From the IMG/VR virus record IMGVR_UViG_3300021956_000012: DNA of 64,000 nucleotides, one strand, 5' to 3'. The stretch comes from a virus. The notes beneath the pieces are model-generated. The model ran no database searches. It worked only from the letters and a program-made list of their open reading frames with translations, and was not told the DNA's origin. Every line of letters starts with the position of its first letter. The first letter of the stretch is position 1. This document shows, one piece after another, positions 22,204 through 22,545 of this stretch. The position numbers and the translations under genes were made by a program.

Positions 22204-22534
22204 GTCCCGATCCTCTGCAGAGTTTCAAATCCCTAGAAACAATGTACGATGCGAGATAGGTGAAAGTCCTATCATTAAAATAGATGTACTGATGGTGTGG
22301 TACACTATGGATTTCTAGACCTGCGGATTGTCGTCCAAAAAGCGTAACGAATAATAGGAGTGAAAACTTCTACGGGAGCAAAAAGACACTATAATACCAG
22401 TGTAGGGGCTGGTGGTTATAGTTCAGTATATTTCAGGTTGGGTAAACGAACGTGGTTTACTATTTGGGAACTTTTACCTAGCTGAGCTAAAGGCAATGGG
22501 CGGTTCTAAGATACGGAATATACTGAACTATAAC
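22204..22534 (+). ncRNA. Candidate large structured ncRNA of unknown family
   Basis: ORF-free; nested helices, a T-loop hairpin, a GAAA hairpin and a perfect 18-bp stem 22415-32/22517-34. Confidence 0.6.
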
Positions 22535-22545
22535 TAAGGAGTAAT

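Follow-up and report, generated by a model that had tools for sequence, protein, structure and literature searches.

The perfect 18-bp stem that precedes the DUF7275 gene of this phage forms the core of P1, the helix that closes a conserved small three-way-junction RNA (22415-22534), and this RNA is a distinct, previously undescribed family carried by freshwater phages among their tRNA genes. Comparison of its copies establishes the fold and its conservation, identifies the transcribed strand and shows that the RNA occurs in two kinds of genomic setting, independently of the DUF7275 gene. We think it reasonably probable, on balance, that the element is an autonomous and probably processed small RNA of about 120 nt, from a distinct family that travels with phage tRNA genes, and that the hairpin competing for its 5' arm is a transient folding guide; a role as a purpose-made control element of the adjacent enzyme gene is not supported.

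The window, by which we mean the whole 64-kb stretch of DNA that was analysed, covers the greater part of a phage genome that measures 79,223 bp and has direct terminal repeats; the phage is related to Limnohabitans phage DC31. The local gene order runs from primase/helicase through family-A DNA polymerase, endonuclease VII, a promoter, tRNA-Arg(TCT) and the RNA region to a DUF7275/DUF7277 gene, with about 350 nt lacking any conserved open reading frame (ORF) between the tRNA and the gene for this 272-aa protein (Table 1). From the sigma-70-like promoter upstream of the tRNA, tRNA-Arg, the RNAs and the gene behind them are probably transcribed together, and the next strong promoter lies at 25199. 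Two further promoter candidates were rejected: a sigma-70 promoter at GACACTATAAT, which has no -35 box, is missing its final T in several relatives and received no call in the promoter scan, and a promoter of the SP6/T7 type, the motif for which occurs just once in the window.

The original prediction had described an exact 18-bp inverted repeat ending just ahead of a ribosome-binding site (RBS), together with a mutually exclusive hairpin built on the same 5' arm, and it was accurate on each of these points. The arms (22415-22432 and 22517-22534) are 100% complementary across the 84 nt between them and constitute the longest local perfect inverted repeat in the 64-kb window, where the runner-up reaches 13 bp; as RNA, the helix extends to 20 bp through U22433:G22516 and C22434:G22515, and possibly to 21 through G22414:U22535. 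The AAGGAG motif (22536-22541) starts 2 bases past the helix and is followed by the ATG at 22546. The competing hairpin pairs ACTATAA (22388-22394) with TTATAGT (22416-22422) around ACCAG (22396-22400) and CTGGT (22409-22413), and both hairpins need 22416-22422. The region 22380-22550 folds at -52 kcal/mol (z = -4.98), a stability matched by 0 of 200 shuffled sequences.

Table 1. Features of the RNA region and its flanks, numbered by position in the 64-kb window
Feature	Position	Strand	Remarks
Sigma-70-like promoter, TTGACT-18-TATAAT	22082..22111	+	11/12 matches
tRNA-Arg(TCT), upstream neighbour	22123..22197	+	Called by Rfam and ARAGORN
Upstream conserved core RNA	22198..22387	+	Near-identical to DC31; covarying helices, 21 sequences
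5' competitor strand ACUAUAA, pairs with 22416-22422 (H1 extension)	22388..22394	+	6 pairs, 97.6% of cells paired
Hairpin H1 of core RNA	22396..22413	+	Covarying stem, conserved loop U(U/G)UAGGG(A/G)
P1 5' arm	22415..22434	+	20 bp, 28 copies without indel, compensatory changes in 11 pairs
Junction strand J1/2, AGGUUG, unpaired, conserved	22435..22440	+
P2 hairpin, 7 bp, variable 7-nt loop	22441..22461	+	6/7 pairs compensatory; 99.5% of cells paired
P3, conserved base AUUU-G-GG / CU-A-AGAU, variable apical part of few types	22462..22512	+
Junction strand J3/1, AC (2 nt, back to P1)	22513..22514	+
P1 3' arm	22515..22534	+	Pairs with 5' arm
AAGGAG RBS and ATG of DUF7275 (NTase-fold) gene, 22546-23364	22536..22548	+	Unpaired in both modelled states

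All pairing counts for the three-way-junction RNA derive from an alignment of 28 distinct copies (alignment A3), in which 97.9% of 1008 cells were paired, as against 36-43% when the partners were slid by 1-3 columns. Compensatory changes occurred in 21 of the 36 pairs (11 in P1, 6 in P2 and 4 in P3), and none of 500 shuffles reached these values of pairing or covariation. P1 itself was paired in 98.4% of cells and kept a constant length, with zero indels. Because our search patterns, which demanded ATTTCAGGTTGG, TATTTGG and CTAAGATACG, required parts of the junction sequence, the apparent invariance of the junction is partly built into the search; AGGUUG was intact in the copies recovered without requiring J1/2, of which there were at least three (L332, L450 and L466; L numbers designate individual loci).

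The plus strand is the one transcribed, as judged from the G:U pairs of the 28-copy alignment, which are invariably present at 29:49, 52:112 and 55:109 and often so at 21:118, and from the scores of a covariance model of the RNA, which gave 117 bits on the plus strand versus 35 on the minus strand. Copies measure 106-134 nt, and since their indels and length steps, including the differences in P3 length, are not multiples of three, we conclude that the RNA is not coding. It is present once in the window and once in the 79-kb genome as a whole.

Copies were collected by way of the neighbouring protein and then by way of the RNA, with 64 IMG/VR loci gathered through the DUF7275 protein and an RNA-motif search afterwards. 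The first-pass motif search returned 22415-22534 as a recurring unit in 36 distinct copies, and looser patterns, applied against ascertainment bias, yielded chiefly coding-sequence noise among the matches listed together with at least three new true copies, so that the RNA is now represented by at least about 43 distinct copies on IMG/VR phage contigs and four short contigs from metagenome-assembled genomes (MAGs). In 596 Gb of prokaryote genomes, 62 pattern matches were nearly all due to chance and just 4 were complete copies; these lie on the MAG contigs L355, L366, L374 and L392, of 0.5-7.5 kb, which are probably phage contigs binned into MAGs. The four are binned as Crocinitomicaceae, Planctomycetia, Pedobacter and Kapaibacterium, respectively, and their P1 sequences differ again; L355 and L374 have no tRNA directly upstream of the RNA. 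Among the cultured phages of the INPHARED set, DC31 is the sole carrier, with its copy at 4216-4334 of L001. Rfam 15 reported only two tRNAs across the whole window at the gathering threshold, and for 22150-22600, at E values up to 10, just the tRNA and a 12.7-bit chance match on the minus strand. Our literature search found no description of the RNA, and the paper on the DC31 genome makes no mention of non-coding RNAs (PMC12195039).

The first of the two settings is a group of unrelated large phages with 25-28 tRNA genes, in which the RNA stands alone and fills a single spacer between two tRNAs, the other tRNA spacers of the same arrays being mostly 2-15 nt long. The CCA ends of 8 upstream tRNAs called by ARAGORN (five Glu, two Lys and one Pro) fall exactly at P1 columns 4-6, which means that these tRNAs have their discriminator and CCA base-paired in the closing helix, and in the 7 copies whose ARAGORN call does not overlap P1, the downstream tRNA begins 4-6 nt past that helix. 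Individual copies in which P1 starts on the discriminator and CCA of the preceding tRNA include L073 (4629-4741), L085 (5396-5508), L086 (6271-6383), L118 (248-360), L089 (692-803), L105 (505-614), L092 and L077; L080 and L366 have, in place of a callable tRNA, an upstream mini-hairpin that ends in ACCA. The sequence of P1 varies widely between settings and its pairing is always kept: the outer part reads CCAUAUUAAAG... in stand-alone copies versus GUUAUAGUUCAG... in the window, and the two pair equally well. The orientation of the RNA is always that of the tRNAs, and the P3 types are common to both settings. A tblastn search of the roughly 4-14 kb fetched around each of 14 IMG/VR stand-alone copies returned no DUF7275 homologue, and core-RNA motifs were absent from 19 of the 19 stand-alone loci checked; the RNA is therefore autonomous. 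These copies also have neither the competitor nor an ORF behind the RNA.

Stand-alone copies that fill spacers between tRNAs fit the earlier suggestion of a processed small RNA, and their overlap with CCA appears to point to tRNA 3'-end biology. They also bear on an alternative that we consider unlikely, in which the locus would be a processing or stability element only, with P1 serving as an RNase III site that parts tRNA and RNA from mRNA and the enclosed RNA having no function. Such an element would offer what P1 has, a 20-bp helix with no interruption and the same length in all 28 copies, made by the sequences on either side of a unit in polycistronic tRNA transcripts, and P1 in stand-alone copies buries the CCA of the upstream tRNA, so that an endonuclease cut would be needed. 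A mere spacer, however, would not be expected to maintain a three-way junction and its unpaired strands, a covarying P2 and the base of P3 across phages unrelated in gene content, and most spacers of the same arrays make do with 2-15 nt and no such helix. P1 is a plausible RNase III substrate by its length and continuity, since such substrates call for about two turns of uninterrupted double-stranded RNA and its 20 bp supply them.

The second setting is that of the DC31-like phages, including the phage of the window, in which tRNA, core RNA and H1 follow one another and the three-way-junction RNA lies inside a terminal hairpin of the core RNA that we call the slot. The slot consists of the outer 8 bp, GUUAUAGU / ACUAUAAC, common to any insert behind H1 in these phages, and the outer 5' arm of P1 (22415-22422) doubles as its stem. 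Elsewhere the slot contains a different insert (L006, L007, L013 and L027) or is a short plain hairpin (L012, L018 and L023); a pattern search with the type-2 insert matched only within the same phage lineage. The insert held by the slot in L031 and L033 includes a T arm of the tRNA type (GUCAGUUCGAUUCUGAC) and lies some 130 nt ahead of the point, at 3001, where the gene starts, and in the same two loci the H1 extension is a continuous helix of 13-14 bp with G:U pairs. Tandem inserts lie behind a single H1 in L003 (2772-2990) and L015 (2772-2990), each with its own stem of the UUAUAGU/ACUAUAA type, and HNH endonuclease ORFs adjoin the island in DC31 (L001), L009 and L031, which together suggest cassette-like exchange in the island region.

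What follows the slot also varies. The RBS of the DUF7275 gene comes next in the usual order of DC31-like loci, a tRNA follows directly after P1 in L024, L026, L028 and L114, another small ORF in L021, and other elements in L019 and L116/L117. The slot ends 2 bases before the RBS in most DC31-like loci, whichever insert it holds, and does so even before a different ORF in L021.

Several smaller observations were made on the DC31-like island. At about 3990-4033 of L001, where the window has its promoter and tRNA-Arg, DC31 carries a different tRNA-like sequence and an ORF with an HNH motif, and the DC31 record annotates no tRNA there. The core RNA contains a candidate pseudoknot between the loop UUGUCG (22328-22333) of hairpin 22325-22336 and GACA (22385-22388), next to the competitor strand on its 5' side, an interaction that amounts to 3-4 bp only and has one covariation event, from G:C to C:G (UCUC/GAGA) in L027 and L034. 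The H1 loop UAGGG(A/G) (22401-22408) is complementary to UCCCUA (22227-22232), which lies towards the 5' end of the core RNA; the two, both of them invariant, could be in long-range contact.

For the preferred reading of a processed small RNA, we envisage that the RNA would be transcribed from the 22082 promoter together with tRNA-Arg and released from its precursor by the enzymes that process tRNAs, with a possible contribution from RNase III at P1. The freed RNA would then act in trans, its conserved junction binding a protein or an RNA, and would probably be tied to tRNA metabolism. A bolder version, which we put forward tentatively and with low probability, holds that the RNA is a self-contained, horizontally moving module, inserted either between tRNAs or in the hairpin of another RNA, whose junction docks a tRNA-3'-end factor. 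If this were so, the docking factor, of host or phage, could be a nucleotidyltransferase, CCA-adding or of the MenT type, or else a nuclease, either one involved in processing or one that targets tRNAs in defence, and the RNA would be a decoy or guide in the contest between phage and host over tRNAs.

The competing hairpin is H1 with an extension of 6-7 bp and belongs to the upstream core RNA. Compensatory changes affect 5 of 5 pairs of the H1 stem, the loop of which is conserved across 25 distinct versions, and the extension changes from C:G to G:C in 8 of 21 sequences and from A:U to G:C in 1. A stem that is not conserved was among the outcomes that the original prediction had named as counting against it; both helices proved to be conserved and to covary. 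The C/G change of the extension is mirrored in the P1 3' arm, leaving all three strands mutually consistent, and at the outermost pair of the slot, covariation is with the 3' arm (U:A, A:U and G:C) and not with the 5' competitor, from which we conclude that slot closure is the more strictly kept helix. Energy models, which omit tertiary contacts and proteins able to stabilise the competitor, favour P1 closure in the full-length RNA of the window by 6.6 kcal/mol and leave the competitor an occupancy of about 1e-4; for nascent prefixes up to 22528, they place the competitor in the minimum-energy fold of each. The same was found at 22 of 22 parsable loci, where the extension is in the nascent minimum-energy fold and, at full length, loses to slot closure by 1.6-8.3 kcal/mol with any insert. 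These models suggest that the competitor is probably a transient co-transcriptional helix that parks the 5' arm of P1: the H1 extension would hold that arm during synthesis and be displaced once the 3' arm appears.

The same pair of helices underlies the proposal of a conformational switch, of which one half has held, namely that two mutually exclusive helices are conserved, and the other has not. In its explicit form, a cis-acting switch in the DUF7275 leader would alternate between the H1 extension and P1, altering the RBS standby region or mRNA stability and thereby setting translation. The mutual exclusion of two covarying helices, the change mirrored across three strands and the constant distance of the slot end from AAGGAG, regardless of insert and even before the other ORF of L021, are in keeping with it. 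Against it, 22536-22545, with the RBS, stays single-stranded whether the minimum-energy fold or the forced alternative is taken, the competitor is hardly populated at full length, no U-tract follows either helix, and neither state hides the RBS or forms a terminator; H1 was considered as an intrinsic terminator and rejected, as it matches the consensus weakly and has no real U-tract. Nor is association with a regulated gene constant, for a tRNA separates RNA and gene in the four loci named above and another RNA or element does so in L003, L015, L019 and L116, and the same RNA occurs alone between tRNAs with no competitor or ORF behind it. A regulatory switch is weakly supported at best, and we judge it quite improbable.

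The link to the downstream gene that the original prediction had drawn finds no support in either direction. The RNA is found without the gene in the stretches fetched around the 14 stand-alone copies, and the gene without the RNA in two loci with close DUF7275 homologues, L002 (preceded by a CDS) and L005 (preceded by a tRNA), as well as in the more distant ones, with 0 of 30 loci at ≤55% protein identity carrying the RNA. Since each occurs without the other, the RNA and the DUF7275 gene are neighbours by synteny and not obligate partners. Their synteny is preserved throughout the DC31-like lineage, in which the RNA may have a local role at the gene.

A reading at the DNA level, in which the RNA fold would be incidental and the arms would either bound a small mobile cassette as terminal inverted repeats or serve as a signal for recombination or replication, would account for the swapping of slot inserts between sister phages, for P3 types common to both settings and for the HNH ORFs beside the island. 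We find it very improbable, because the fixed G:U pairs become A-C mismatches on the other strand, the covariance model prefers the plus strand, compensatory changes keep pairing and not sequence, and each genome has a single copy, always oriented as the tRNAs are.

The protein encoded next to the RNA reasonably bears the label 'NTase', at modest scores. Its AlphaFold model, built on a 29-sequence alignment, has a pLDDT of 91.5, and its top fold matches in the PDB are all nucleotidyltransferases of the Pol-beta type, among them MenT1, MenT4, the TglT toxin, ANT(2'') and similar proteins (Foldseek probability 0.99, E = 0.02-0.09; VIA-align Z 6-7); G7, D25 and D27 never vary and S8 almost never does. 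By this model, the phage appears to carry a MenT-like fold in its tRNA island, the closest solved folds being those of MenT/AbiEii toxins. MenT toxins modify tRNA. We give least credence of all to an RNA that would be a Y-RNA-like or antitoxin-like partner of this downstream MenT/AbiEii-like nucleotidyltransferase or of a Ro-type protein, the former having been raised in the original prediction: a long closing stem around an internal module, a neighbour whose fold comes closest to tRNA-modifying toxins and the location of both in a tRNA island agree with it, but the complete 79-kb phage genome gave no TROVE/Ro match in a search in which control genomes matched, no RtcB gene was found in the phage, Rfam returned no Y RNA or YrlA match, ARAGORN made no call at 22415-22534, the RNA has no tRNA-like T arm and a variable P2 loop, and RNA and gene occur independently.

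Stable RNAs without an explanation have been known from phage tRNA clusters since species 1 and 2 of T4 were described, and GOLLD and ROOL demonstrate that RNAs of such clusters can be elaborate. To these the present RNA adds a compact new family with a clear fold, at least about 43 natural variants, two genomic settings and a cultured carrier in Limnohabitans phage DC31. Excision of the RNA from a precursor, guidance of its folding by a transient hairpin and the identity of binders at its junction thereby become testable, and the exact overlap of P1 with CCA offers a concrete lead to tRNA 3'-end biology. The findings also correct the tempting, unsupported view of the region as a riboswitch-like leader of an NTase gene.

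Among known systems, the folding pathway proposed here has parallels in conserved transient co-transcriptional helices, reportedly described under the title 'Four RNA families with functional transient structures': like those helices, the conserved and covarying H1 extension is predicted to form first and to be replaced by a long-range helix, a displacement predicted here by energy models on 22 orthologues. P1 resembles RNase III processing stems, such as those at rRNA operon flanks and the T7 early R sites, in being an uninterrupted helix of about 20 bp drawn from the flanks of a unit in a polycistronic transcript, whereas the RNA enclosed here is small and has a conserved junction of its own. 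With bacterial Y RNAs (YrlA) it shares a long stem of the 5' and 3' ends around a structured module and a relation to tRNA biology, and differs from them in lacking the tRNA-like T arm of YrlA and in a P2 loop that varies between copies. The rnaD and rnaC of T4 (species 2 and 1) are likewise small RNAs in a phage tRNA cluster, flush with tRNA genes, and are stable RNAs directly behind tRNA-Arg. They end in tRNA-like arms, in contrast to the three-way junction closed by 20 bp here, and have no similarity to it in sequence or structure; a search of the T4 tRNA region with the covariance model (R1), filters switched off, produced scores of at most 10 bits, which fell on unrelated AT hairpins, and left rnaC and rnaD (L241, 2909-3172) without a hit. 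GOLLD and ROOL (RF03087), like the RNA described here, are phage or prophage RNAs near tRNA islands, but they are several times larger and form multimeric cages, and neither was matched by Rfam here at E ≤ 10. GOLLD (RF01998) has a variable linker region that at times holds tRNAs (PMC12286853), and in this it resembles the slot of the core RNA, which holds the three-way-junction RNA or other inserts.
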